A DNA stretch of 64,000 nt, taken from the NCBI GenBank assembly GCA_951406725.2, contig OX597822.1, positions 33,170,001 through 33,234,000 of the forward strand, read 5' to 3'. Every line of letters starts with the position of its first letter. Within the stretch, counting starts at the first letter, position 1. Below the pieces are notes generated by a model. The model saw only the letters and a list, made by a program, of their open reading frames with translations. It had not been told where the DNA came from and made no database searches. Shown one piece after another: positions 1-64,000 of this stretch. The DNA is from Octopus vulgaris. Taxonomy: Eukaryota. The translations under genes and the position numbers were made by a program.

Positions 1-706
1 CTAGAAAAATAATACCTTGCATGGACACACACGAACGCGCGCGCGCATGCATGCATGCACGCACACACATATACATTGACATTCGCGCTTGCACACATAC
101 ACAAACTCACAGATTGAAACTCACATGACATGCATCAGCTTGTTTGCAACTTGCCTGAGACGAATTAGTACGATGTACTATAAGGGCAACAATTCACCTC
201 AGGTAAATGACTATTCAACATTGTCCTATGGGTCATTACCGCGTCAACGAGTTAAACGTCTGATACAATTATACGTGACAGACTGGACATCCGTACATTT
301 ATAATCAGCATACAAAAGCCGGATGACTACGATAGCATTCACAAAGGCTTTGAGATGCCGAGTAATTGTACATTCCTCGCTATTAATTTAAATCCCGATA
401 GAATATAAGGATAATGTTCATCTTGTTATATGTAATATTGGATTGCTGCATCTGTAAAGTAAATGACAACGAGACAAGAAGAATAGGAACTGGGAATATA
501 CCATAAAAGAACAAATGATATGAGAAATGTTAAACGTTGCAGGCAGGTTCTTCCATAGTAAATATTGGCCTGAAGATATGCCAGACAATATATATCATTA
601 TATAATTTGTAAGCGCGGAAGGGGAGAATGTTGATGTCTTTCTTAAATAAGCAACATCTATAAACCTCAAATGAATAATAATAACAATAATAATGACGAC
701 GACGAC

Positions 707-1680: not shown

Positions 1681-3631
1681 AATATTTGACGAGTCTGAGA
1701 TGTTTTGAGGGGTTTTTTCATCTGGTTTAGCATTGCATGCAAAATAAAAGTGAAAATATTTCTAAAACCGACCATGCTAACGAATCCCAGAAAGGGGTAC
1801 ACTTTCCGGAATGTTTAATTCACTAAAAGTTCTTGTTTGAAATAAAATGAAAAATTAAAATTACTTCTTTTTGTCCGTTATCCTGGGGAAACATCGAAAC
1901 AACTCAGAGCAAGATGATTTTGTTCATGTCTGACGAGATGTCAGGGATAATAAATAATAATAATAACAATGATAATGGTTTTAAATTTTGGTACAAGGCC
2001 AGCAATTTTGGAGGAGGAGTAAGTCGAATTTATCTAACCAAGAGAGATGAAAGGCAAAGCTGACTTCGAAAAGATTTGAACTCAGAACTTAATGAGACGT
2101 AAGAAATAGAGCTTAGCATTTTTCCAACGCTGTCCTAATCTTAATATTTAACTGGTACGTTATTTCATCGAATCCTGAGAGATAGGAGAAGAATCTAACC
2201 TCAGCGAACTTTGAACCTATAAGATGAAGAGCCGGTGACTGTAAAGGACTTTGTTTGAGGCTCTAACGATTCTTTGGTTATTGCTTCTAATCTATTGACA
2301 GTTTCTTCAAAGAGTAGCAGATACAACACAAGGCGTTATTGGCAAATAGTGTCTCCATGTAAAAAAAGAAAAACAAAAAATATACTCCTCAAACTTTAAC
2401 ATTCTGGTTAACTTTATGAGTGTTTCAAAAGTATTCAAATTAATTTTCATTCATTAGAATTTTTAATTACACGTTCCCTTTAGATAAATTAATCGATATG
2501 TAATTAAAAGGCAGCAAGAAAAATAAGGAATCGTAAAACATGTGTTACTTTCACTCTTCCCTTACTCGTGAACGATGTTTTGTTTTGTTTGATTGTATTT
2601 TGTTGTTTGTCTTTTAATGTTATGTACGCCTTTGGTTATAACCCTTATTTTCCTTTCTGATTCGAAGTCATTGACCGAAACACCCTAATTACAAAAATCT
2701 ACCACTCAATGATTTTTCATTACTGGCAAGCGTCGTAAAGCTGCTAAACTAATAGCAAAACGGTTTCGATTCGAGACTGTGATTGTTCTATTTCACTTCG
2801 TTCTTTAAACCCCAGTTCTTCCCAAATCGAGTGGGTTTAAAACCAAAGACCTTCGAGCCCTGACCACAACATCATATTCACATGCTAATTAAGGTTTGGA
2901 CTACGTAAGTCATTTTTGTTGAATCTCACTTCTATTGTAAATGTTTTGAACATACTATACATTCCATATTCTAATTCCATACCGATGTCCCCACAAAAAA
3001 CATATCAGCCACATGAGTCATTTTGCTGGGTTAAAGACTAATGATTTTATTTATCATTCGACACATGACATAAAACAATTACTTTAGATTTCTTAAAGTG
3101 GTAAAATACCGGAAATCTGAGGTTCTAGGTTAAACAGTTATATTGACTCATTCTGGGTGTGTAAAGAAAGTCTCTGTCCGGGGTGGTTGTTTAGTAAACT
3201 GTTAGAGGGTCAGACGAGTAAGATGGTTAGCTCTACCATTGGTATAAGAAGATTGAGAGCAGCTCTATAGGCGTTGAGGATCTGACACGGCTGACAAAAC
3301 ATTTAACCTGTATTGAGTACAATGTATTTGGGGTTACAGGTAAACGCACACCCACAAATACGCACGCACGCACACACACACATACACACATAGGTACGTA
3401 CACAGAGGAACAGACACTCACGAATCTATGCGGAGAAATATATACACATACAGATAGAGAGAGTGAGCGACGGTAAGTGATAGCTACATACATTGAATGC
3501 GTAACAAAGAGAGAAAGAGAAGGTAGAAAAGAACGAGTGAAACATTAAAATGACTGATGTTAAAAAAGTTAGTGCGTCAAATAAAGCGACTCCAAAATAA
3601 TACGTGTCTTACTCATCCATCACACACACAC

Positions 3632-8476: not shown

Positions 8477-8650
8477 ATAAATATTAGGGAATAAATCCAA
8501 AATTACAGGGAAAAAATCAGATTTAGGATTAAATCCAATTTTATAGTAAAATATTATATAATATTAATTAGAGACAAAACCACTATTTTGCAAAACAAAC
8601 AAGGAAAGACTTAATCAATACATAAAATTTTAATAAAAAGTAAAAAACCA

Positions 8651-8693
8651 CCACTACAATTGTTTCATGTCTTGAACGACAATCTTCAGGTGG
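8651..8693 (-). ncRNA. Minimal type I hammerhead ribozyme (inverted arm)
   Basis: Reverse complement of 8754-8796. Confidence 0.85.
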
Positions 8694-8753
8694 ATTTCCG
8701 ATTTTCAAATCAGTTTCAATTTATGAATTGAAACTGATTTGAAAATCGGAAAT

Positions 8754-8796
8754 CCACCTGAAGATTGTCGTTCAAGACATGAAACAATTGTAGTGG
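8754..8796 (+). ncRNA. Minimal type I hammerhead ribozyme
   Basis: ccac-CTGAAGA-t-tgtc-gttcaa-gaca-t-GAAA-caattg-TA-gtgg; stem III is the palindrome ACAATTGT. Confidence 0.85.
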
Positions 8797-8877
8797 CGGT
8801 TTTTTTACTTTTTATTAAAATTTTATGTATTAATTAAGTCTTTCCTTGTTTGTTTTGCAAAATAGTGGTTTTGTCTC

Positions 8878-8943
<66 letters not shown>

Positions 8944-10546: not shown

Positions 10547-10788
10547 TAATAATAATAATGATAATAATAATGATAATTATGATAATAATAATAATGATAA
10601 TAATAATAATGATAATAATAATAATGATAATGATAATAATGATAATGATAATAATGATGATGATAATAATAATAATAATAATAATAATAATGGTAATAAT
10701 GATAATGATAATAATAATAATGATAATAATAATCATAATAATAATAACGATACTGATAATGTTACTGATAATAATGATAATAATCATA

Positions 10789-10870
<82 letters not shown>
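9600..10870. repeat. Degenerate (GGT/GAT)n followed by an (AAT)n trinucleotide field
   Basis: Direct reading. Confidence 0.95.
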
Positions 10871-10872
<2 letters not shown>

Positions 10873-10874
10873 CA

Positions 10875-11430
10875 TGCCCTGACGCAGTACCAGGCAGTGG
10901 CTCTCATGGCTTCTGATCTTAATTGATTGGAAGTGTTATCATGTACATTGTTTTGTCTTGCTATAAAAGATGGGCTACAGCAAATATTCTGCTCAATACC
11001 ACAGATTTGCTTGTCAGTTGTTTGACCTTAACCAGTTGACCATGTCCCTTAGTGGCTGACGATATGTGCATCTCTGATCACGAGCAGAAGTAGTGGGGGA
11101 GCATCATAGCCATGTGTTGAGAGGGATTCTTTGGGGTTTGAATAATTCACCTCTGGAAACATGGGTGGTTCTTTCAACATCCTTAAACAATCCTTATTCA
11201 GGGACCTTTTGAGCGGGATGGGCTACTCAACCCGAAGAAAAATTCTAACTGGGCCCCACCTGCAAGGTCATGTACTGTTTATCTTGATATGAGATAACCA
11301 TGTCGCGCACATATGGTTGTGATGCATGTGCCTGGTGTACCCTTATCAGACGGGTAGTCATGATAGGTATATTGGGCTTCGTATATTTTACCCCAGTGTC
11401 ACTTTGATGGCATGAACTGCTCTCTCACTC
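10875..11430 (+). mobile_element. ~555-bp interspersed element in (AAT)n; possible Dong/R4-related 3' end or non-autonomous partner
   Basis: Highly similar to the reverse complement of 62296-62850. Both copies share the same ends and are flanked by AAT repeats. The Dong/R4 link is inferred only from the known TAA-repeat targeting of that group. Confidence 0.75.
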
Positions 11431-12489
11431 AATAATAATAATAATAATAATAATAATCACCACCATAATAACTTCACTCACAAACATCACTATCTACCGA
11501 AAGGGACTAACCATGTAGTTAGCCAACCAGCTAGAAATAGAAACGAAATGTCTCACAGACACACTTTACTGTTTAAAATATCGAAGGATACATTCAATAA
11601 GGTAGTGTGCGGTATACTAAAAATTCGGTGGCGTGGTCAAATATGGAATAACTTTGAACACAGGTTCTAGTCGATCAGGGCTGACTAGAGGTTAAACAAT
11701 AGAAAACAATAATAACATCACTGTTACTTAAACCAAACAAGTGTTACTGACACAGCAACAAGAATTATCAACACTATAACTCCAGCAAAGGCGGCAAGGT
11801 GTCAGGATCGTCAGCACATCGGGGAAAATGCTTAGCAATATGTCGTCCGTTTTTATACTCTGAGTTCAAATTCTGCCGAATTCTACTTTGCCTTTCATTA
11901 TTTCGTGGTCGATAAAATAAGTACCAGATGAGTAACAGGGTCGATGTACTCGCTTTACGCCCTACTCCGAAATTGCTAGCATTGAGCCAAAATTTGAAAA
12001 CAAACTTATCACTGCAGTAAAGGTGGAGAGCTGAGAGAATCTATGGCATACCGAGAAACAGGTTTAGCGTTATTTCGTCCATTTTTAAGTTCTGAGTTCA
12101 AATTTCGTCTTTCATCATTTCGGGATTAATAAAACAATTACCAATTGAGCACTGGGGTCGATGTAATCGCCTTATCCCCTACTCCGAAATGTGCCACAAT
12201 TTCAAACCAACATTTATAACTACAGTATAGACGCAAACGTTTTACATAAGCTATTTCCTAAAACATCAGGATATATAAGCTTAGTCTTTTCTTGGGGGTG
12301 GCCAGATTGGAGCAATCTCGAGTATAATCGGCCGAAATTGCAAAGATAATCTGCAGCCCGACTGAGGAAAGAAAACTCCGAAAGATCCGTCATTGTTTTC
12401 TTTGTATCGTGTATCTGGACGTTTTGTTGTGCCTTTTTTGTATCACCTATAAGTCCGGATGTTTTGCGTTCTTGTCCCATTTTGCATTT

Positions 12490-37427: not shown

Positions 37428-37775
37428 GTGAAACTGAAAGAAGCTCGTCGTATATATTTATATATATACATACAGACACACACACACACACATATATATA
37501 TGTATGTATGTACGTATGTATGTATGTATGTATGTATGTATGTATGTATGTATGTATGTATGTATGTGTGTATGTTTGTGTGTCTGTGTTTGTCCCCCAA
37601 CATCGCTTGACAACAGATACTTGTGTGTTTGCGTCCCCGTAACTTAGCGTTTCGGCAAAAGAGACCGATAGAATAAGTACTAGGCTTACAAACAATAGGT
37701 CCTGGGGTCGATTTGCTTGACTAAAGGCGGTGCTCCGGCATGGCCACAGTCACATGACTGAAACAAGTAAAGAGC
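37428..37775 (+). mobile_element. SINE family A, 5'-truncated
   Basis: Body and tail match. Confidence 0.8.
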
Positions 37776-38092
37776 AAAGTGTATATACATACATACATAC
37801 ATATATACAGGCATACATACATACGTTCAGGAAATGCGCACACATTTTGTACGCGAACGCATAAACACACATATATCTGTGGTGTGTGTTTATGCGTTCG
37901 CGTACAAAATGTGTGCGCATTTCCTGAACGTATGTATGTATGCCTGTATATATGTATGTATGTGTATATACACTTTGCTCTTTACTTGTTTCAGTCATGT
38001 GACTGTGGCCATGCCGGAGCACCGCCTTTAGTCAAGCAAATCGACCCCAGGACCTATTCTTTGTAAGCTTAGTACTTATTCTATCGGTCTCT
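37660..38092. repeat. Near-perfect inverted duplication (~210-bp arms, ~11-nt spacer)
   Basis: 37660-37871 is the reverse complement of 37883-38092. It includes a SINE 3' end plus flanking sequence. Confidence 0.95.
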
Positions 38093-47066: not shown

Positions 47067-47111
<45 letters not shown>

Positions 47112-47122
47112 TATATAGAAGG

Positions 47123-47173
47123 AGCTTCTACAGGACTAGTACTGTTTCATTCAAGAGAAATCTTCAGGAAGCT
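47123..47173 (-). ncRNA. Hammerhead ribozyme, left inverted PLE copy
   Basis: Reverse complement of 51001-51051. Confidence 0.86.
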
Positions 47174-47560
47174 ATTTAACAAGAATTGTATTAGCATTTA
47201 TACATTTAGAGGAGTGGTGGTGGGGGACTTTTAGGGGGTAGGCATAGCGCAAAATATCATACTTGGGGGAGTGGTCAAGGTAATAAAAAAATAAAAAAAT
47301 AAAAAATAAAAAAAAATAAAAAGATAAAATAAAAGAATAAAAATAAAAAATATAAAAAATATAAAAAATATAAAAAATATAAAAAATATAAAAATATATA
47401 TAAAAAAATATATAAAAAAATATATATATAAAATATATATATAAAATATATATATAAAAAAAGGGGGGATAGAGTTATAGGTAAATAAGGAGATTCTCAC
47501 TTATACCTATACACACATGTATACGTATCTACACACACATACGCACATACACATATATCT

Positions 47561-47613
<53 letters not shown>

Positions 47614-48072
47614 CCTACACATACACACATACATACATACAAATATACATATACATATATATATATACAATCCAATACAGGCCCATTCCCTAATTTTAAT
47701 TTTATTATCTTCATTTATTACTTTTGTTATCTTTGATCGCTAAGGCTAAGAATCCTGGCAATAGCTGCTTGTCCGTTTGTCTGTCTACTAGAAGGCAAGT
47801 ACTCATTCCCGCACGCACACTCATTAGCACGTACATTCACCCATTCGTACACTCATACACATACACGTACGCACGCGTTATATTCATACATACAAACATC
47901 TACATACGTTCACGTATATACACATACGTACTCGTACCTACAGATTCGTGTCTACACTTTAGGAGGCTAGTCTATACATATACACCAATAAATATACATA
48001 TATATATATATATATATATACCCGCATATACATACACACACACACATATATACTCCTACATACAGATACATA

Positions 48073-48116
<44 letters not shown>

Positions 48117-48317
48117 TACATATATATATACATATATACACATACATACACATACACACATACACACACATACATACACATATATATACATACCAAACAT
48201 ATATACACACACATATATATACATACACACATACACACATACATACGTATACATACATACATACATCTATACATCCATACTTACATGCATTTATACGCAT
48301 ACACACACCCATCTATA

Positions 48318-48354
<37 letters not shown>

Positions 48355-49321
48355 TCACACATACATATACAAATCTACGCACACACATACATACATACAC
48401 GTATACGCATACACGCACATACACATATACATGCGTACCCATACACGTGCACACACGCACGCGCATCCATATAAATACACACACACACATATATATATAC
48501 ACGTGTGCAAGCATACATACATACTCATACGCGCACACATACTTACAAATACATATATGCACACACTTACACACATATATATACATACACATATACATGC
48601 ATACATACATATATGCATACATACACACACACTCATATATATATATATATAAACATATATATATATATATACATACATATATATATATATACACATATAC
48701 ATACATACATAGACACATATACACATACATACACATACACATACGTACACACACATATACACATATATATATATACATATATATATATATACACATATAC
48801 GCATACATATATACACATATACATACATATACATACACACACACATACATATATACATATACACTGATACACATACCCATACATACACATGCATATACTT
48901 ATATTACTACATACTCACATTTATAGACATATATACATATACACACATACATATATACATGTACATACACATACGCATGCATATATATATATATATACAT
49001 ACATATATATACACATATATATATATATATATATATACATACATACACACACACACACACATACATATACACATATACATGTATACATACGCAAAAATGA
49101 TACGCATATATACACATACACACACACAGACAGATGCATATACATACATATATATATATATAAACTACATATCTATATAAATACATACATAATACACATA
49201 TACACACACATATATATACATTCATGCATATACATATACAAGTATACATACACAAACATACACACACACGCGCACACATACATATACACACACACATATA
49301 CAAATACATACATACACACAT

Positions 49322-49360
<39 letters not shown>

Positions 49361-50037
49361 CATACATGTACACATATACATATGTATATATATATCAACA
49401 AGGGGGGTAAAGTTAATTAGTTATTAATCAATTTCATCAAGTGTTCAGTATGTAAAGGGACCATTATTATTTTGAGTAAACAATGTTAGAGGGAAAAAAA
49501 TTCTCTAAGTAGTGGAAGAGGCTAAAAAACTTTATTGGCTGCTATTTCTAGAAAGTTTAGTATGTGGCAAAGTAATTTATTTTATTTTCCTAAGCCCTAA
49601 TTATATAATATTTTATACATACATACACATACATAAGCACATACATTTACACATACATATGCATATACATATATACACATATACATACAAACACATATAC
49701 ACATATACACACACACACACATACAAGCACATACATATATATATACACATATATACACATATATATACACATATATATATATATATATATACATGCAAAC
49801 ATATATACATATATATTTTTTTACATGCATACATACACACACACACACATAATACATGCGTATATTCCTACTGTACCCATGCATTTCTATACATATATAC
49901 ATACATACATACGATACACATATACAAGCGTGCACATATAATATGCGTGCACATATAATATGTGAAAGGTCTTAGGAGAAAAGGTAATCGGGGGTGCTAG
50001 GGGAACAGTGGGGTTGGGGGTTGGGGGGGGGTTGTCA

Positions 50038-50799
50038 TCAATCAGGTTGCCGGGTAGGTCTATAGTTCTTGTAGTTCGCATACTTCTTATGCATACAGTT
50101 TGGGGAGTGTTCTGAAAATTTGTTAAGGAGAGGGCCTTTGGCGAACAAGATCTCTAGGCTCTCTGATATGCATAGGTCACAGCAGGTATGTCCTCCTGTG
50201 TACGAGCGCGCCTTCTGTAGTAGTTTCCACTTGGTCTTGAAGGGGATTGAGTTCCTTTTAAGGTACCAGATGTGGGCGGCGAGGGTAGTTTGGTTGGATT
50301 TATCCTGTCGCCGGAACGAGTGTGTATGTGCATACCAGCGGGTCTTAAAGCTGTTTGACGTCATTCCAATGTAGGATTTACTTTTATCGTCAAGGCCTGA
50401 TCTTACCTCGCATTTATATACTAGGTCCCTCTGTAGGCAGTTGTTGTTGAGGGGCAGGTGGTTTTATCATGGCAGTTGCAATTGCTATCGGACGTTGGAT
50501 GGGCCCCGGAGAAAGTAGATATGTTAAGTTTTTTCACATTGTTGTTGGCTAAGTTCCTGGCTAGGTTGGGCGTGGTAGAGTAGGAGAGTCTAATAGTGTT
50601 CTTATTTAGGATAGTGTAGTACTTATGTTGGGTGGGGAAGTGTTTCTGTAGGAGAGTGAAAAAGATCTTAGCTACAGGTGTAGCGACCTCACGGTTGAAG
50701 GGGGGTTATACCAGCTAATGTGTCTTCGTCTATTTTTCCTGGGTTGGCGTGGGGCTATACTAGTGTAGGTAATCTTATCTTTAAAACCACTGCGGGCCA
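50038..50799 (-). pseudogene. Inverted duplicate of the PLE thumb/GIY-YIG coding region
   Basis: ORF 50038-50364 is identical to the C-terminal 108 aa of ORF 52823-53323. It has an extra 1-bp loss in a homopolymer (G4 at 50451-50454 vs C5 at 52906-52910). Confidence 0.92.
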
Positions 50800-51141
50800 T
50801 ATATTTTTTTTATTTTTTTAATATTTTATATTTTATTTTTTTTATTTTATTTTTTTTATTTTTTTTATTTTTTATTTTTTTATTTTTTTATTACCTTGAC
50901 CACTCCCCCAAGTATGATATTTTGCGCTATGCCTACCCCCTAAAAGTCCCCCACCACCACTCCTCTAAATGTATAAATGCTAATACAATTCTTGTTAAAT
51001 AGCTTCCTGAAGATTTCTCTTGAATGAAACAGTACTAGTCCTGTAGAAGCTCCTTCTATATAATAAATTAATTTTACTCTGCTATGTATTGAGTACCTTA
51101 CTTACTGTGGTTAACCCCGAATCAACCCGGGAACTACATAT
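50800..51141 (+). repeat. 5' pseudo-LTR of the PLE
   Basis: Direct repeat of ~55960-56333 (T-rich tract, ttaccttgaccactcccc..., hammerhead, AATAAA, ...cccgggaactacata). It ends ~40 nt before the ATG. Confidence 0.9.
51001..51051 (+). ncRNA. Type I hammerhead ribozyme in the 5' pLTR
   Basis: agcttc-CTGAAGA-t-ttc-tctt-gaa-t-GAAA-cag-tactagtc-ctg-TA-gaagct. Stem I (agcttc/gaagct) is perfect, stem II is ttc/gaa, stem III is acag/ctgt, and the core is intact. The predicted GUA cleavage is after 51045. Confidence 0.88.
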
Positions 51142-51182
51142 CTTAGCACACCCTAGTGCCCTTATAACCATCACCAAGAAAA

Positions 51183-53323
51183 ATGCTGACAAGAATCGAC
51201 CTCGACACTTCCCTGAAGAACATTACTATCCCACCAAGGAAACAGTACCAAAAAGCCCTCATTAGACGGACTGATGAGTTCATCAAAAGAATTCGATGGA
51301 GATCTTTCTTCTTCGACAACCCTGATGTAGCATCTACCAGTAATGATAAGTACGGCTTCAAATCAAATAAGGCCCCTCCTACCAACAGCCTACTTGAACC
51401 GTTTGAAGAAGACCTCTTCCTCATGATAAAAAACATCAAATTCAGGAGAGTCAACTTACCTTTCCAAACGGAACTGAATGCGAAGCTTTCGAAAATGAAA
51501 AGCTCCCAGAACCTCCATGTCCCTTCGGACAAGACAAAAAATATTTACGCGGTGACTCCGGATACCTATAATAGACTAGCCGATAACGCCATCACAGCTA
51601 AATACAAGAAAGTAGACGACGTAGCGCTAACTGAAACCAACTTGGCCGGGAAAGAGATTGCCACCTCCCTTAAAATCGACGACCGAACAGAACCCCTGAG
51701 GGTGAAGTCCCCACACTTCACCCTGAAAGACCACAAAGACCATTTCGAAAATAAACCGTCGGTCCGTTTGATCAACCCAACCAAGTCTGACATCGGATCC
51801 GTCAGCAAGAAGATCTTGGACAGGATTTTACCAAAAATGCGTGAAGCTTCACCCCTTCCACTCTGGAATAGGACCTCCGAGGCAATAACTTGGTTCCGGG
51901 ATTTACCAGATAAAAGCAACACCCGATTCCTACAACTGGATATCGAGGATTACTACGCCTCTATATCGGAGAGCTTGCTGATCGATGCGATTAACTTCGC
52001 CAGGAGGTCCTCCACCATCACCGAGGCCGAGCAAGATGTGATCCTCCACGCACGTAAGACTTTTCTTTTCTATGACGGATCCCACTGGATCAACAAAAAA
52101 TCTGTGACCCCCTTCGACGTCAGCATGGGTGCTAACGACTCTGCTGAAATAAGTGACCTAGTGGGCCTTTTCATCCTCCATAGGCTGAAAACCCTATTCA
52201 CAGGCCTCTCCGGTGGTCTTTACCGAGATGACGGCCTTTTCGCCCTCCACAATATAAACCCCAGGACCACGGATGGGTTCCGGAAAAATCTTCACACCTT
52301 CTTTAAAAACTTAGGCCTTAGGATTACCCTAGAATCCAACTTAACTAAGGCTAACTTCCTAGATGTCACCCTCGACTTAAAAACCTCACTTTATTACCCG
52401 TACCACAAACCAAATGAATCCCTTAGATATATAGATATCAATTCCAACCACCCCAGAAATATATTAGATAACCTAGTAAAAAGTGTCTCAATTAGAATCT
52501 CTAGCCTGTCCGCCACGGAAGATATCTTTAAGGCCGCAGCCCCCTATTACAACGAGGCCCTGGCCCGCAGTGGTTTTAAAGATAAGATTACCTACACTAG
52601 TATAGCCCCACGCCAACCCAGGAAAAATAGACGAAGACACATTAGCTGGTATAACCCCCCTTCAACCGTGAGGTCGCTACACCTGTAGCTAAGATCTTTT
52701 TCACTCTCCTACAGAAACACTTCCCCACCCAACATAAGTACTACACTATCCTAAATAAGAACACTATTAGACTCTCCTACTCTACCACGCCCAACCTAGC
52801 CAGGAACTTAGCCAACAACAATGTGAAAAAACTTAACATATCTACTTTCTCCGGGGCCCATCCAACGTCCGATAGCAATTGCAACTGCCATGATAAAACC
52901 ACCTGCCCCCTCAACAACAACTGCCTACAGAGGGACCTAGTATATAAATGCGAGGTAAGATCAGGCCTTGACGATAAAAGTAAATCCTACATTGGAATGA
53001 CGTCAAACAGCTTTAAGACCCGCTGGTATGCACATACACACTCGTTCCGGCGACAGGATAAATCCAACCAAACTACCCTCGCCGCCCACATCTGGTACCT
53101 TAAAAGGAACTCAATCCCCTTCAAGACCAAGTGGAAACTACTACAGAAGGCGCGCTCGTACACAGGAGGACATACCTGCTGTGACCTATGCATATCAGAG
53201 AGCCTAGAGATCTTGTTCGCCAAAGGCCCTCTCCTTAACAAATTTTCAGAACACTCCCCAAACTGTATGCATAAGAAGTATGCGAACTACAAGAACTATA
53301 GACCTACCCGGCAACCTGATTGA
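51183..53323 (+). CDS. PLE polyprotein (RT + C-terminal GIY-YIG endonuclease), split by one frameshift at 52655-52660; ~713 aa if repaired; probably Nematis-like clade
   Basis: RT motifs are FLQLDIEDYYASI, DVSMGANDSAEISDLVGLF, GLYRDDGL (YRDD at 52221-52232) and NFLDVTLDL. The shifted frame continues WYNPPFNREV...KHFP...SYSTTPN. The endonuclease reads CNC..CPL..CL..LVYKC..YIGMT..FKTRW..H..CDLC..E..LLNK..CMH. The clade call is from remembered motif style, not from a tree. Confidence 0.92.
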
Positions 53324-54001
53324 TGACAACCCCCCCCCCCCCCAACCCCACTGTTCCCCTAGCACCCCCGATTACCTTTTCTCCTAAGACCTTTCACATA
53401 TTATATGTGCACGCATATTATATGTGCACGCTTGTATATGTGTATCGTATGTATGTATGTATATATGTATAGAAATGCATGGGTACAGTAGGAATATACG
53501 CATGTATTATGTGTGTGTGTGTGTATGTATGCATGTAAAAAAATATATATGTATATATGTTTGCATGTATATATATATATATATATGTGTATATATATGT
53601 GTATATATGTGTATATATATATGTATGTGCTTGTATGTGTGTGTGTGTGTATATGTGTATATGTGTTTGTATGTATATGTGTATATATGTATATGCATAT
53701 GTATGTGTAAATGTATGTGCTTATGTATGTGTATGTATGTATAAAATATTATATAATTAGGGCTTAGGAAAATAAAATAAATTACTTTGCCACATACTAA
53801 ACTTTCTAGAAATAGCAGCCAATAAAGTTTTTTAGCCTCTTCCACTACTTAGAGAATTTTTTTCCCTCTAACATTGTTTACTCAAAATAATAATGGTCCC
53901 TTTACATACTGAACACTTGATGAAATTGATTAATAACTAATTAACTTTACCCTCCCTTGTTGATATATATATACATATGTATGTGTGTACATGTATGTAT
54001 G

Positions 54002-54034
<33 letters not shown>

Positions 54035-54315
54035 ATGTGTGTATGTATGTATTTGTATATGTGTGTGTGTATATGTATGTGTGCGCGTGTGTGTGTATGT
54101 TTGTGTATGTATACTTGTATATGTATATGCATGAATGTATATATATGTGTGTGTATATGTGTATTATGTATGTATTTATATAGATATGTAGTTTATATAT
54201 ATATATATGTATGTATATGCATCTGTCTGTGTGTGTGTATGTGTATATATGCGTATCATTTTTGCGTATGTATACATGTATATGTGTATATGTATGTGTG
54301 TGTGTGTGTGTATGT

Positions 54316-54346
<31 letters not shown>

Positions 54347-54666
54347 TATATATATGTATGTATATATATATATATATGCATGCGTATGTGTATGTACATG
54401 TATATATGTATGTGTGTATATGTATATATGTCTATATATGTGAGTATGTAGTAATATAAGTATATGCATGTGTATGTATGGGTATGTGTATCAGTGTATA
54501 TGTATATATGTATGTGTGTGTGTATGTATATGTATGTATATGTGTATATATGTATGCGTATATGTGTATATATATATATATGTATATATATATATGTGTA
54601 TATGTGTGTGTACGTATGTGTATGTGTATGTATGTGTATATGTGTCTATGTATGTATGTATATGTG

Positions 54667-54725
<59 letters not shown>

Positions 54726-55004
54726 TGCGTGTGTGTATGTATGCATATATGTATGTATGCATGTATATGTGTATGTATATATATGTGTGTAAGTGTGTGC
54801 ATATATGTATTTGTAAGTATGTGTGCGCGTATGAGTATGTATGTATGCTTGCACACGTGTATATATATATGTGTGTGTGTGTATTTATATGGATGCGCGT
54901 GCGTGTGTGCACGTGTATGGGTACGCATGTATATGTGTATGTGCGTGTATGCGTATACGTGTATGTATGTATGTGTGTGCGTAGATTTGTATATGTATGT
55001 GTGA

Positions 55005-55041
<37 letters not shown>

Positions 55042-55245
55042 TATAGATGGGTGTGTGTATGCGTATAAATGCATGTAAGTATGGATGTATAGATGTATGT
55101 ATGTATGTATACGTATGTATGTGTGTATGTGTGTATGTATATATATGTGTGTGTATATATGTTTGTGTATGTATATATATGTGTATGTATGTGTGTGTAT
55201 GTGTGTATGTGTATGTATGTGTATATATGTATATATATATATGTA

Positions 55246-55291
<46 letters not shown>

Positions 55292-55748
55292 TATGTATCT
55301 GTATGTAGGAGTATATATGTGTGTGTGTGTATGTATATGCGTATATATATATATATATATATATGTATATTTATTGGTGTATATGTATAGACTAGCCTCC
55401 TAAAGTGTAGACACGAATCTGTAGGTACGAGTACGTATGTGTATATACGTGAACGTATGTAGATGTTTGTATGTATGAATATAACGCGTGCGTACGTGTA
55501 TGTGTATGAGTGTACGAATGGGTGAATGTACGTGCTAATGAGTGTGCGTGCGGGAATGAGTACTTGCCTTCTAGTAGACAGACAAATGGACAAGCAGCTA
55601 TTGCCAGGATTCTTAGCCTTAGCGATCAAAGATAACAAAAGTAATAAATGAAGATAATAAAATTAAAATTAGGGAATGGGCCTGTATTGGATTGTATATA
55701 TATATATGTATATGTATATTTGTATGTATGTATGTGTGTATGTGTAGG

Positions 55749-55803
<55 letters not shown>

Positions 55804-55959
55804 AGATATATGTGTATGTGCGTATGTGTGTGTAGATACGTATACATGTGTGTATAGGTATAAGTGAGAATCTCCTTATTTACCTATAACTCTATCCCCC
55901 CTTTTTTTATATATATATTTTTATATATATATTTTATATATATATTTTTTTATATATTT

Positions 55960-56333
55960 TTTTATATATATTTTTTATATTTTTTATATTTTTTATATTT
56001 TTTATATTTTTTATATTTTTTATTTTTATTCTTTTATTTTATCTTTTTTTTTTTTTTATTTTTTATTTTTTTATTTTTTTATTACCTTGACCACTCCCCC
56101 AAGTATGATATTTTGCGCTATGCCTACCCCCAAAAGTCCCCCACCACCACTCCTCTAAATGTATAAATGCTAATACACAATTCTTGTTAAATAGCTTCCT
56201 GAAGATTTCTCTTGAATGAAACAGTACTAGTCCTGTAGAAGCTCCTTCTATATAATAAATTAATTTTACTCTGCTATGTATTGAGTACCTTACTTACTGT
56301 GGTTAACCCCGAATCAACCCGGGAACTACATAT
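55960..56333 (+). repeat. 3' pseudo-LTR of the PLE
   Basis: Matches 50800-51141 and runs directly into (TA)n. Confidence 0.9.
56193..56243 (+). ncRNA. Type I hammerhead ribozyme in the 3' pLTR
   Basis: Identical to 51001-51051; predicted cleavage after 56237. Confidence 0.88.
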
Positions 56334-56357
56334 ATATATATATATATATGTGTGTAC

Positions 56358-56396
<39 letters not shown>

Positions 56397-56465
56397 GGGT
56401 TGATTCGGTGGTCACTAAGTGTACTCAATACATAGCAGAGTAAAATTAATTTATTATATAGAAGG

Positions 56466-56516
56466 AGCTTCTACAGGACTAGTACTGTTTCATTCAAGAG
56501 AAATCTTCAGGAAGCT
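56466..56516 (-). ncRNA. Hammerhead ribozyme, right inverted PLE copy
   Basis: Reverse complement of 51001-51051. Confidence 0.86.
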
Positions 56517-56887
56517 ATTTAACAAGAATTGTATTAGCATTTATACATTTAGCAGGTTTAAAGTGGTGGTGGGGACTTTTTGGGGGTAGGCATAGCGCAA
56601 AATATCATACTTGGGGAGTAATCAAAATAAAAAAATAAAAAAATAAAAAATAAAAAAATAAAAAATAAAATAAAAGAAAAAAATAAAAATAAAAAATATA
56701 AAAAATATAAAAAATATAAAAAATATAAAAAATATATATAAAAAAATATATATAAAAAATATATATATAAAATATATATATAAAATATATATATAAAAAA
56801 AGGTGGGATAGAGTTATAGGTAAATAAGGAGATTCTCACTTATACCTATACACACATGTATACGTATCTACACACACATACACACAT

Positions 56888-56942
<55 letters not shown>

Positions 56943-57399
56943 CCTACACATACACACATACATACATACAAATATACATATACATATATATATATACAAT
57001 CCAATACAGGCCCATTCCCTAATTTTAATTTTATTATCTTCATTTATTACTTTTGTTATCTTTGATCGCTAAGGCTAAGAATCCTGGCAATAGCTGCTTG
57101 TCCATTTGTCTGTCTACTAGAAGGCAAGTACTCATTCCCACACGCACACTCATTAGCACGTACATTCACCCATTCGTACACTCATACACATACACGTACG
57201 CACGCGTTATATTCATACATACAAACATCTACATACGTTCACGTATATACACATACGTACTCGTACCTACAGATTCGTGTCTACACTTTAGGAGGCTAGT
57301 CTATACATATACACCAATAAATATACATATATATATATATATATATACCCGCATATACATACACACACACACATATATACTCCTACATACAGATACATA

Positions 57400-57445
<46 letters not shown>

Positions 57446-57647
57446 TATATACATATATACACATACATACATACACATACATATACACACACATACATAC
57501 ACATATATATACATACACAAACATATATACACACACATATATATACATACACACATACACACATACATACGTATACATACATACATACATCCATACATCC
57601 ATACTTACATGCATTTATACGCATACACACACCCATCTATATATATG

Positions 57648-57701
<54 letters not shown>

Positions 57702-57959
57702 CACACACACACACACACATACATACACGTATACGCATACACGCACATACACATATACATGCGTACCCATACACGTGCACACACGCACGCGCATCCATAT
57801 ATATACACACACACATATATATATACACGTGTGCAAGCATACATACATACTCATACGCGCACACATACTTACAAATACATATATGCACACACTTACACAC
57901 ATATATATACATACACATATACATGCATACATACATATATGCATACATACACACACGCA

Positions 57960-58013
<54 letters not shown>

Positions 58014-58072
58014 TATACATATATAGACACATACATACATACACATACACATACGTACACACATATATACAC

Positions 58073-58109
<37 letters not shown>

Positions 58110-58607
58110 TACATATATACACATATACATACATATACATACACACACACATACATATATACATATACACTGATACACATACCCATACATACACATGCAT
58201 ATACTTATATTACTACATACTCACATATATAAACATATATACATATACACACATACATATATACATGTACATACACATACGCATGCATATATATATATAT
58301 ATACATATATATACACATATATATATATATATATATACATACATACACACACACACACATACATATACACATATACATGTATACATACGCAAAAATGATA
58401 CGCATATATACACATACACACACACAGACAGATGCATATACATATATATATATATAAACTACATATCTATATAAATACATACATAATGCACATATACACA
58501 CACATATATATACATTCATGCATATACATATACAAGTATACATACACAAACATACACACACACGCGCACACATACATATACACACACACATATACAAATA
58601 CATACAT

Positions 58608-58640
<33 letters not shown>

Positions 58641-59825
58641 CAGGGGTTGGATAGAATAATTGGATCAGTAGAAATTTAACTCCACTATTTCAATATTACG
58701 AATATCCATCCAAATTTCATTGTGACTGTGTATTTATTTTTGTATTGAACATGGTTTTAGTTATCTAATTTAATGATTATTTTTTATCTCTTTTCCGGAT
58801 AATAGTATAAATTAAGCTAAGATGCGTGATCTAACTGAGTTCGAAAAAGGGCAAATTGTTGGAGCTCGAACGGCAGGAGCTTCCGTCACCAGAACACCTG
58901 AGCTCCTGGGTTTTTCGAGAGATACCATATCAAGGACCATGACTGAATTTCAGAAGCGGGGCAAAACCTGCCGGACTTACTCCTCCTGCTGAAAGAGACC
59001 GATGAGTGTTGCAACAGAGTTGAATCAAAATCTGACTAGCCTTGTTTCAACCAAAACTGTTCATGGTGAGCTCAGTAAAGCCAGATATCATGGAAGTGCC
59101 GCCATCAGGAAGCCTCTGCTTTCTCATCAAAATATTCAGAAAAGGCTGAACTTGTGTAGAGATCACAAGGGCTGGTCGACAGACCAATGGAAGTAAGTAA
59201 TATTCTCTGAAGAGTTCAGTTTTTTTTCTTTTTGTCACTGCAGGGCGTGTTTATGAGTGGAGGCAGCCACGGGAAACTTTTAATCCTGACTGCCTTCTTC
59301 CTATAGTGAAGCACGAAGGAGGGTCTCTGAAGGTTTGGATAGCCTTTTCTTGGAATTCTCTTGGTCCAATTGTTGTCCTGCATAGTAGGATCAACAGAAT
59401 TGACTATCTGAATATTTTAGGAAAGGAAGTCCTTCCCATTTCCAGACATTATTTCCTGATGGTGAGTGCAGCTTCCAAGATGCGAATGCTCCAATACACA
59501 GCTCTCATGTGGTTAAGAATTGACATGAAGAACATAGTAGTGGACTACAATACATGGAGTGACCCCCCTCAACTCCAGATCTTAATATTATTGAGCATCT
59601 GCGGTCATCTTAGAGCGACAGGTTAGAGGTCGTTACCCTCCACCGTCATGTCTGCAACAGATGGAGCAGGTGGAATGGCTTACGATGCCTTTCAATGAAG
59701 TCAGAAAGGTCTATGAATCAATTCCTAGACTCATCGAAGCTGTTCAGAAAGCTATAGGAGGACCAACTCCATATTAAATAAATATTCATTGAATTTGCCA
59801 CGTGTTCCAATTATTTTGTCCAACC

Positions 59826-59830
<5 letters not shown>
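58641..59830 (+). mobile_element. Decayed Tc1-like transposon
   Basis: Pseudo-ORF from MRDLTEFEKGQIVGAR (58822) through RKPLLS, VKHEGGSLKVW and PDLNIIEH to GGPTPY* (59777). ~26-bp TIRs (gggttggaYaRaataattgga) in TA. Confidence 0.88.
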
Positions 59831-62250: not shown

Positions 62251-62295
62251 TATTTACTAAGTCAAATTAAACTATTTATTATTATTATTATTATT

Positions 62296-62850
62296 GAGGG
62301 AGAGAGCAGTGCATGCCATCAAAGTGACACTGGGGTAAAATATACAAAGCCCAATATAACCATCATGACTACCCGTCTGATAAAGGTACACCAGGCACAT
62401 GCATCACAACCATATGTGCGCGACATGGTGATCTCATATCAAGATAAACAGCACATGGCCTTGCAGGTGGGGCCCAGTTAGAATTTTCTTCAGGTTGAGT
62501 AGCCCATCCCGCTCAAAAGGTCCCTGAATAAGGGTTGTTTAAGGATGTTGAAAGAACCACCCATGTTTCCAGAGGTGAATTATTCAAACCCCAAAGAATC
62601 CCTCTCAACACATGGCTATGATGCTCCCCCACTACTTCTGCTCGTGATCAGAGATGCACATATCGTCAGCCACTAAGGGACATGCTCAACTGGTTAAGGT
62701 CAAACAACTGACAAGCAAATCTGTGGTAGTGAGCAGAATATTTGCTGTAGCCCATCTTTTATACCAAGACAAAACAATGTACATGATAACACTTCCAATC
62801 AGTTAAGATCAGAAGCCATGAGAGCCACTGCCTGGTACTGCATCAGGGCA
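62296..62850 (-). mobile_element. Second copy of the ~555-bp (AAT)n-embedded element
   Basis: Reverse complement of 10875-11430 with scattered substitutions. Confidence 0.75.
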
Positions 62851-62862
62851 ATTATTATTATT

Positions 62863-62978
<116 letters not shown>

Positions 62979-64000
62979 CATTATTATTGATATTAATATT
63001 ATTATTATCATCATCATCATCATCAATTAATTAATGTGTATGTGTGTGAAACTTTTCTCCGTCTTCTAGAAATAAATCCTTGTGGCGAGGCGTTACAATA
63101 CGAAAAGGACTTGAAATTAATTACGTAGAGCGAAATAAAATTCATTCAGAGATGGGTTTATGTGAGACGGCACGCACAAGTCTTGTGGCTTCGCTTTATC
63201 GCATAACAACTTATGTCATTTATATTTATAGCTCGGAATCTTTACTCCTGAAACTAAAGAAGGACAACGACGATGTTGGATACACAAGTAAAAGGACAAT
63301 ATTTATTAATAATCATTGTACATACAAGTGTAACTGTAAGGGAATACTTAACGGTTGGGATAAAATAAATGTAATAAAGTATATTAATAAGAATGCTAAA
63401 GAAAGATTATAATAAAAATAGTAAGTATAAAGAACCATAAATAAATCGATATAATAGTTGTTATACAAAGCCTGAATGTTACAAATGGTCGAAGGCACTT
63501 TGGTATATTTATGACGGATGGCTTTAAACTTGGGGGAGTTGTTATAAAATACAGAATAATACATTATTGATAAAAATGCTTGTGAGGAGATGGTTACCTC
63601 CTTTGTAATAACGACGATAAACCTAGAGGACACCACATGTATAATCATAGAGATACCAATAAAAATTGATGACCTGAGGAAATGCAAAGGTTTGTGAAGT
63701 TATGAAAATTATAGAAGCTTTCGAAAGCAAAGATATTTTCTGTGAAGTTAATTACGAATTCCGTTCGTCGAGAAATGATAACCGCTGGCAAGGGATGAGA
63801 CTGCAGTGGTTCAAAAACTTGGCACCCGGTTGACACTTCCAGCGCCTCCCTCCCTTCTCCCCACCACAAACATAGACCACGTTCTCCATCGAATTCAAAA
63901 CTATATTTCAAAAATAAAATGTAACCTAAATAAACCATTATTTTGAGGGGTGGGTTTCACATCTATAGCCCCATTTTGGCCACGACATTGTCATCCCAGT

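Follow-up and report, generated by a model that had tools for sequence, protein, structure and literature searches.

In this study, a 64-kb window of the Octopus vulgaris genome (GCA_951406725.2, contig OX597822.1, positions 33,170,001 to 33,234,000) was analysed; coordinates below are those of this whole stretch. Self-BLAST and pairwise alignment within the window resolved an 11.5-kb cluster into three element copies, A, B and C (Table 1). Copy A lies head to head with B and carries the whole simple-sequence tract and a hammerhead. Copy C, in tail-to-tail orientation to B, carries blocks 2 and 3 together with island 2 and differs from B in its pLTR variant. In unique sequence, pairwise alignment of A and B showed 1 substitution in 1590. 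The unit of B, measured as the distance between its two hammerheads, is 5192 bp. At its 5′ junction, C begins in an internal TA run of the tract near 54000, which is fused to flanking TA.

Table 1. Features of the three-copy cluster (window coordinates)
Feature	Position	Strand	Remarks
(TA)n target run, 3′ end of copy A	47071..47105	.	sequence
Copy A, 5′-truncated, inverted; equals B 52561-56260	47106..50799	-	alignment, 99% identical
Copy B, full length: 5′ pLTR, ORF, simple-sequence region, 3′ pLTR	50800-56329	+	alignment
5′ pLTR of B (partial tandem)	50800..51137	+	hammerhead core at 51007, predicted cut after 51045
RT + C-terminal GIY-YIG ORF, Hydra type	51168..53323	+	first ATG 51183; frameshift in C run 52655-52660
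C-rich unique stretch, 3′ of stop codon	53324..53399	+	
Simple block 1: 17-bp doublet, then TG/TA/TATG	53400..53744	+	start matched by variant contigs, X11 and X12
Unique island 1	53745..53964	+	in A and B only
Simple block 2, 82% simple, G>>C on sense strand	53965..55384	+	(TA)27 at 54668
Unique island 2	55385..55694	+	A, B, C, 99.7%
Simple block 3	55695..55860	+	
Short unique link and T-rich stretch running into pLTR	55861..56082	+	
3′ pLTR of B	55994..56329	+	hammerhead core 56199, predicted cut after 56237
(TA)n-TG-(TA)n target run, 64 bp, between 3′ ends of B and C	56330..56393	.	
Copy C, separate 5′-truncated insertion; equals B from 54000 to pLTR end	56394..58642	-	94% identical

Judged by its motifs, predicted hammerhead and (TA)n targets, the element is a Hydra-clade Penelope-like element (PLE). 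The encoded protein had 1401 relatives among 8000 scored candidates (best 52%) and showed an RT followed by a C-terminal GIY-YIG, with YRDDG at residue 352 (frame 1) and LVY...YIG in frame 2. A Pfam search of the window protein returned no RT or GIY-YIG match; PF01541 was found in one homologue and PF00078 in one homologue. The DKG motif is changed to DKT (at 121; DKT or DKS in 120/120 homologues), and the RWK motif appears as RWR at 43, a conservative change (RW[KR] in 118/120 homologues). The CxCX5C linker is present (CNCHDKTTC), CX2-5CxxC had no match in the window protein, and one C lies between LVY and YIG, so that there is no CCHH pair; CDLC (CxxC) and CMH (CxH) are present. GxK[FY] was absent from the window protein, as expected of the Hydra clade, and all three 3′ ends adjoin (TA)n. 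These features match those listed for the clade in section 11 of PMC8557442, as far as the available text of that paper goes. The size of the unit exceeds the under 3 kb that is typical, not diagnostic, of the clade. In a tree of 30 homologues built without named Hydra references, the window protein grouped with P0001 and P0002 at 100/100. The Naiad clade was considered and ruled out, since the EN is C-terminal and a hammerhead is present, whereas Naiad elements have an N-terminal EN and no canonical hammerhead.

A single ORF is characteristic of the Hydra clade. The one-base frameshift in the cytosine run of the ORF is common to A and B, and the same run has one more C in contigs of the four sequencing runs compared (X1, X11, X9 and also X12). 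This frameshift is either a private lesion or an assembly error; because it is common to A and B, the window copies may be non-autonomous or mis-assembled at that base.

In a pattern search, each of the four pLTRs yielded a type I hammerhead motif with 6-bp stem I and stem III, and the pattern agrees with the published Hydra pattern in the accessible part of the supplement of PMC8557442. The fold energy of this putative hammerhead was no better than that of shuffles (z -0.01). No hammerhead was among the 150 Rfam matches listed, which were crowded by TA-repeat matches; all of them were sub-threshold, miRNA-type and located on TA repeats, and were rejected. Copy B ends 92 nt past the predicted cut, a long end with tail, and A ends 23 nt past it, a short end with no tail, so that the two ends are 69 nt apart.

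Simple sequence, defined as a perfect 1–6 bp repeat or a purine/pyrimidine alternation of at least 20 nt, made up 64% of 53324–55960 vs 15% outside the cluster. A preliminary description of this DNA had claimed that the tract recurs motif for motif, together with its unique islands, in three copies. For the repeats this was borne out: block 53965–55384 gave alignment scores of 2638 against A and 2370 against C, far above 20 tetramer shuffles of C (mean 677, max 744) and five other simple blocks of the window (211–355), and of its 1285 25-mers, 1144 recurred in A and 846 in C vs 67 in the rest of the window. The likeness of the tract among copies is thus beyond chance or composition. For the islands it held in part. 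Island 2 is present in all three copies with 1 difference in 310, and island 1 is present in A and B and missing from C because C is truncated at 54000. Neither island was found elsewhere in the 64-kb window, and the tract has no relation to the simple blocks that lie beyond the cluster. A search for internal exact 28-mer duplications found none accounting for the tract. The open frame of island 2 had no match in the protein database, from which the family's own RT is likewise absent (best 52%).

Between C and B, 14/15 indels in simple blocks were of even length vs 1/7 in unique parts (p=0.0006), and between A and B the counts were 8/10 and 2/5 (p=0.25); both sets of counts may be inflated by consensus errors. 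Slippage is visible in these comparisons, the repeat lengths having apparently been altered in whole units since. An excess of the Pumilio-like motif TGTAHATA (32 sense and 3 antisense, with 6.5 in dinucleotide-unit shuffles) was rejected as a signal, being a product of TG-to-TA junctions; its density was similar in 3 of 4 other simple blocks.

The distance from stop codon to hammerhead is 2875 nt in B, vs a median of 104 nt (42–461) in 43 relatives, several of which are near-duplicates, so that they do not equal 43 independent families, and whose short-read contigs are biased against repeat-laden spacers. These 43 are the loci with a strict hammerhead among 78 metagenome loci; 30 others had none, the EN end was missing from 3 and a stop from 2. 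With a looser hammerhead pattern, a core was found 44–515 nt after the stop in 11 of the remaining 30 loci, one of them probably spurious. The 14 complete elements among the 27 Hydra families tabulated in the available part of PMC8557442 measure 2084–2729 bp. A long spacer is not unique to the window element, and one Hydra relative counts against uniqueness: locus L053 (2414–4146) has a stop-to-hammerhead spacer of ~1628 nt, which contains a GT-rich minisatellite and an internal duplication spaced 1.2 kb, with a variant hammerhead core and a (TA)15 end. The contig of L044 breaks in (GT)/(GCGT) repeats at 3155–3214, 20 nt after the stop, and is possibly a second SSR-laden spacer. The expanded spacers of B, L053 and L044 are all G/T-rich on the sense strand.

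Public sequencing runs were used to follow the family outside the window. Words of 51100–53500 were recovered at 62–85% in 20 of the 24 runs listed (7 studies, one organism); one of the 24 may be the source sample of the window. Contigs of four runs (X1, X9, X11 and X12) were aligned to 50895–53500 by a procedure that skips repeats and filters contigs, with 53441–53500 skipped and X1 uncovered beyond 53330. Among the loose ends listed, at least 36 contigs in X1, X11 and X9 had loose (AT)n ends behind 51141, and at least 12 contigs in X9, as well as contigs in X11, had them behind 51068–51072; 157 more loose ends exist beyond those listed. As these two positions correspond to the ends of B and A, the end of A is a family end and not a random breakpoint. 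The 10-nt pLTR insertion at 50964 (TTAAACCTG-type), which is found in C and not in A or B, was dominant in X1 (523.8/826.6) and X11 (185.3/185.3) and was seen as loose ends in X9 and X12. Since this insertion is common in other runs, C comes from another lineage, yet one that bears the tract; with 1 of 310 bases of island 2 different between C and B, the lineages of B and C are close.

Contigs of two runs also extend into the start of the tract. Record 16 of X11 (595 nt; 52908–53414 plus 82 letters) crosses the stop codon into block 1, as does record 24 of X12, and in both the letters past the stop match 53432–53473. These variant contigs are without one 17-bp unit and three 4-bp units, and have 5 substitutions listed at 53317–53352 plus a 6-nt insertion. 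The substitutions, insertion and missing unit indicate that their source is neither A nor B, and the contigs could be alleles of other individuals rather than other loci. What was seen of the tract outside the window is its first ~70 nt, without islands or block 2. In X11 the depth was 35.8 on both sides of the stop. Summed depth after the stop fell from 8753 to 528 in X12 and from 92897 to 34094 in X9, in an alignment that skips repeats; family members with another 3′ region may exist. The hammerhead part is common to elements with other upstream sequence, as indicated by loose ends before 51001. Depth rose in the 5′-to-3′ direction from 12 to 33 in X1 and from 4–7 to 36 in X11, which is only a hint because contig depths differ from copy numbers.

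As a separate observation, in most bins of the four runs the pLTR (50895–51155) had a summed contig depth far above that of the ORF; some contigs match the hammerhead part only. The high pLTR depth hints, within the same limit on contig depths, at many solo pLTRs or retrozyme-like derivatives.

Taken together, the tract very probably belongs to the mobile unit, as the preliminary description had proposed. It lies between the ORF and the 3′ pLTR, the copies bearing it have family-typical 3′ ends, a second pLTR variant (that of C) bears it as well, and variant contigs of two studies enter its start. Host DNA caught at this locus alone and subsequently multiplied nearby through inverted duplication at the DNA level would account for the facts that all three complete observations lie within 11.5 kb, and that A and B are nearly identical in unique sequence and have the frameshift in common. 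This is improbable, however, given that the 3′ end of A coincides exactly with one that the family uses elsewhere, that the pLTR variant of C is common in other runs and that contigs unlike A or B run into the tract. Several features could likewise be expected if A or C were made by a long-read fold-back during assembly, namely arms that are inverted and nearly identical, and homopolymer differences of one base such as consensus errors typically produce. Such an artefact is very hard to credit: the arms of A and B do not fold directly back but have 1761 bp (pLTR and 5′ ORF) between them, A is flanked by sequence of its own and ends as the family typically does, the pLTR of C is distinct, and an inverted 5′-truncated partner is a described PLE structure.

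The reading preferred here is that a Hydra-clade PLE with a 2875-nt, mostly simple-repeat spacer likely has this spacer reverse-transcribed and re-inserted as passive cargo with every copy that is long enough; we put its probability at roughly 0.8. [quoted passage not shown] By analogy to the Anolis case, two RT start sites would account for the ends at 23 and 92 nt beyond the predicted cut, and the head-to-head pair A and B would be the product of one two-sided event; C would have inserted into the same TA run as B, either before or after that event. With the 3′ end set by the pLTR, anything between ORF and pLTR would be copied, and a function for the tract would not be required. As to origin, read-through as far as a downstream pLTR may have brought microsatellite-rich host DNA into an ancestor that had a short spacer. 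Given that the tract is cargo, such capture is somewhat the better supported origin, and repeats grown in place are a possible but less probable one; the unique parts of the spacer are larger than the largest strict-hammerhead spacer (461 nt), which favours host DNA uptake. No donor locus for such DNA was found.

Selection of the tract for a function, for example as an RNA-protein binding platform or as a nucleosome-free promoter for the next tandem unit, is quite unlikely. The tract is kept in two pLTR lineages despite a doubled unit length, and its G/T polarity on the sense strand is uniform (skew 0.55–0.90), as a function might lead one to expect; most relatives do without it, however, and the host blocks of the window show similar skews (0.68–0.78) and a similar TGTAHATA density.

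The preliminary description had further suggested that the element spreads microsatellite in a feedback loop. The spreading was upheld locally: the three copies make up 18% of the window yet hold 4438/9483 of its alternating-repeat bases (47%), a share that does not generalise because the window was flagged for this cluster. In the loop, each long copy would add compound microsatellite (about 1.6 kb) and (TA)≥8 runs (up to nine), which would serve as new targets and as microhomology for 5′ joining, sealing 5′-truncated insertions with internal runs, so that the family would seed its own sites, feed its own spread and drive the repeat load of the genome. Consistent with this, (TA)≥8 runs number 9 in the tract (3.4 per kb vs 0.94 per kb elsewhere), all three 3′ ends abut (TA)n, the 5′ junction of C has the fused structure described above, and the cluster holds the 47% share. 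Nested insertions into the tracts, which the preliminary description had proposed to count, did not appear, with 0 pLTRs inside the three tracts. Moreover, the target runs are short and of host type, with only a 14-mer in common with the tract, 49 (TA)≥8 runs are already present in the rest of the window, and the junction of C is a single case that could be a later deletion. We regard the loop as unlikely. The 14-mer occurs at 56348–56361, in the spacer between B and C, and at 53981–53994 in the tract, just 5′ of the truncation point of C; these are its sole plus-strand occurrences in the window, possibly by chance.

As probable passive cargo of a Hydra-type element, the tract can be set beside several known systems. 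In the portions of Craig et al. 2021 (PMC8557442) available to us, the Hydra clade is like the window element in its C-terminal GIY-YIG, DKT, RW-basic motif, CxCX5C, CxxC and CxH, in a canonical hammerhead near the 3′ end, in (TA)n targets, and in a partial-tandem pLTR, an inverted 5′-truncated partner and an optional tail. The window element is different in its unit of 5.19 kb vs 2.08–2.73 kb, in its 2.9-kb simple-sequence spacer and in a tail of 69 nt vs the 30–40 described. The published protein of Hydra-1_Obim, where its sequence could be compared by eye, differs from the window protein. For penaeid shrimp, the accessible text of Yuan et al. 2021 (PMC7878876) reports syntenic SSRs inside >98% identical Penelope copies, considers them mobile with the element and puts TEs forward as carriers of SSRs. 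That text does not resolve clade, position or amount; in the window, the cargo could be assigned to the 3′ spacer, and it accounts for half of the unit. Poseidon of Anolis (PAc; Frangieh et al. 2024, PMC11167929) likewise has AT-rich targets, and its two RT starts would explain the tail, but it belongs to another clade and no simple-sequence spacer is described in the text available. In Chlamys PLEs (same portions of PMC8557442), tandem repeats also lengthen the mobile unit, but the clade has an N-terminal EN; MITE-borne 'hitchhiking' microsatellites (titles of works cited in PMC9659126) also lie inside the mobile unit, but that of DNA transposons. In neither case, as given in these sources, does an element with a C-terminal EN and (TA)n targets itself carry (TA)n. 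The open literature, a scope with subscription papers and Repbase outside it, yielded no Hydra element described as having a microsatellite spacer of kilobase length, and no such structure is described in the accessible portions of PMC13282606, 10.64898/2026.07.22.740005, PMC9659126 and PMC3124438. Transposons that carry microsatellites are already known; what is new here is the Hydra-clade form with a kilobase microsatellite spacer.

How transposons carry SSRs is a question that the available text of the shrimp paper (PMC7878876) leaves open, and the cluster provides a case in which the cargo is mapped precisely. Repeat-masking pipelines would score half of the element as host microsatellite, and consensus building from short reads would end it at the stop codon; in such genomes, part of what is counted as 'simple repeat' load may accordingly be retrotransposon cargo that goes unrecognised. 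Markers designed in such cargo would be multilocus, and many dated, identical-by-descent tracts would constitute a natural experiment on microsatellite mutation.

Several other repeats were observed in the window. At 8551–8900, a head-to-head inverted pair with arms of ~175 nt is followed by (TA)n, and each arm has a Hydra-type hammerhead motif (8758–8792 on the plus strand and 8689–8655 on the minus strand); it is likely a mini insertion of another Hydra-like family. A 433-bp palindrome at 37660–38092 consists of the end of a dispersed repeat, which we take to be SINE-like, with a TACA-type tail, followed by (TA)n, and could be a PLE-style inverted insertion made in trans. A decayed element with terminal inverted repeats, presumably Tc1/mariner-like, lies at 58641–59830 in the TA run at the 5′ junction of C. 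An inverted 755-bp dispersed repeat, present at 10696–11450 and 62276–63023 with 92% identity, ends in (ATT)/(ATC) trinucleotide tracts.
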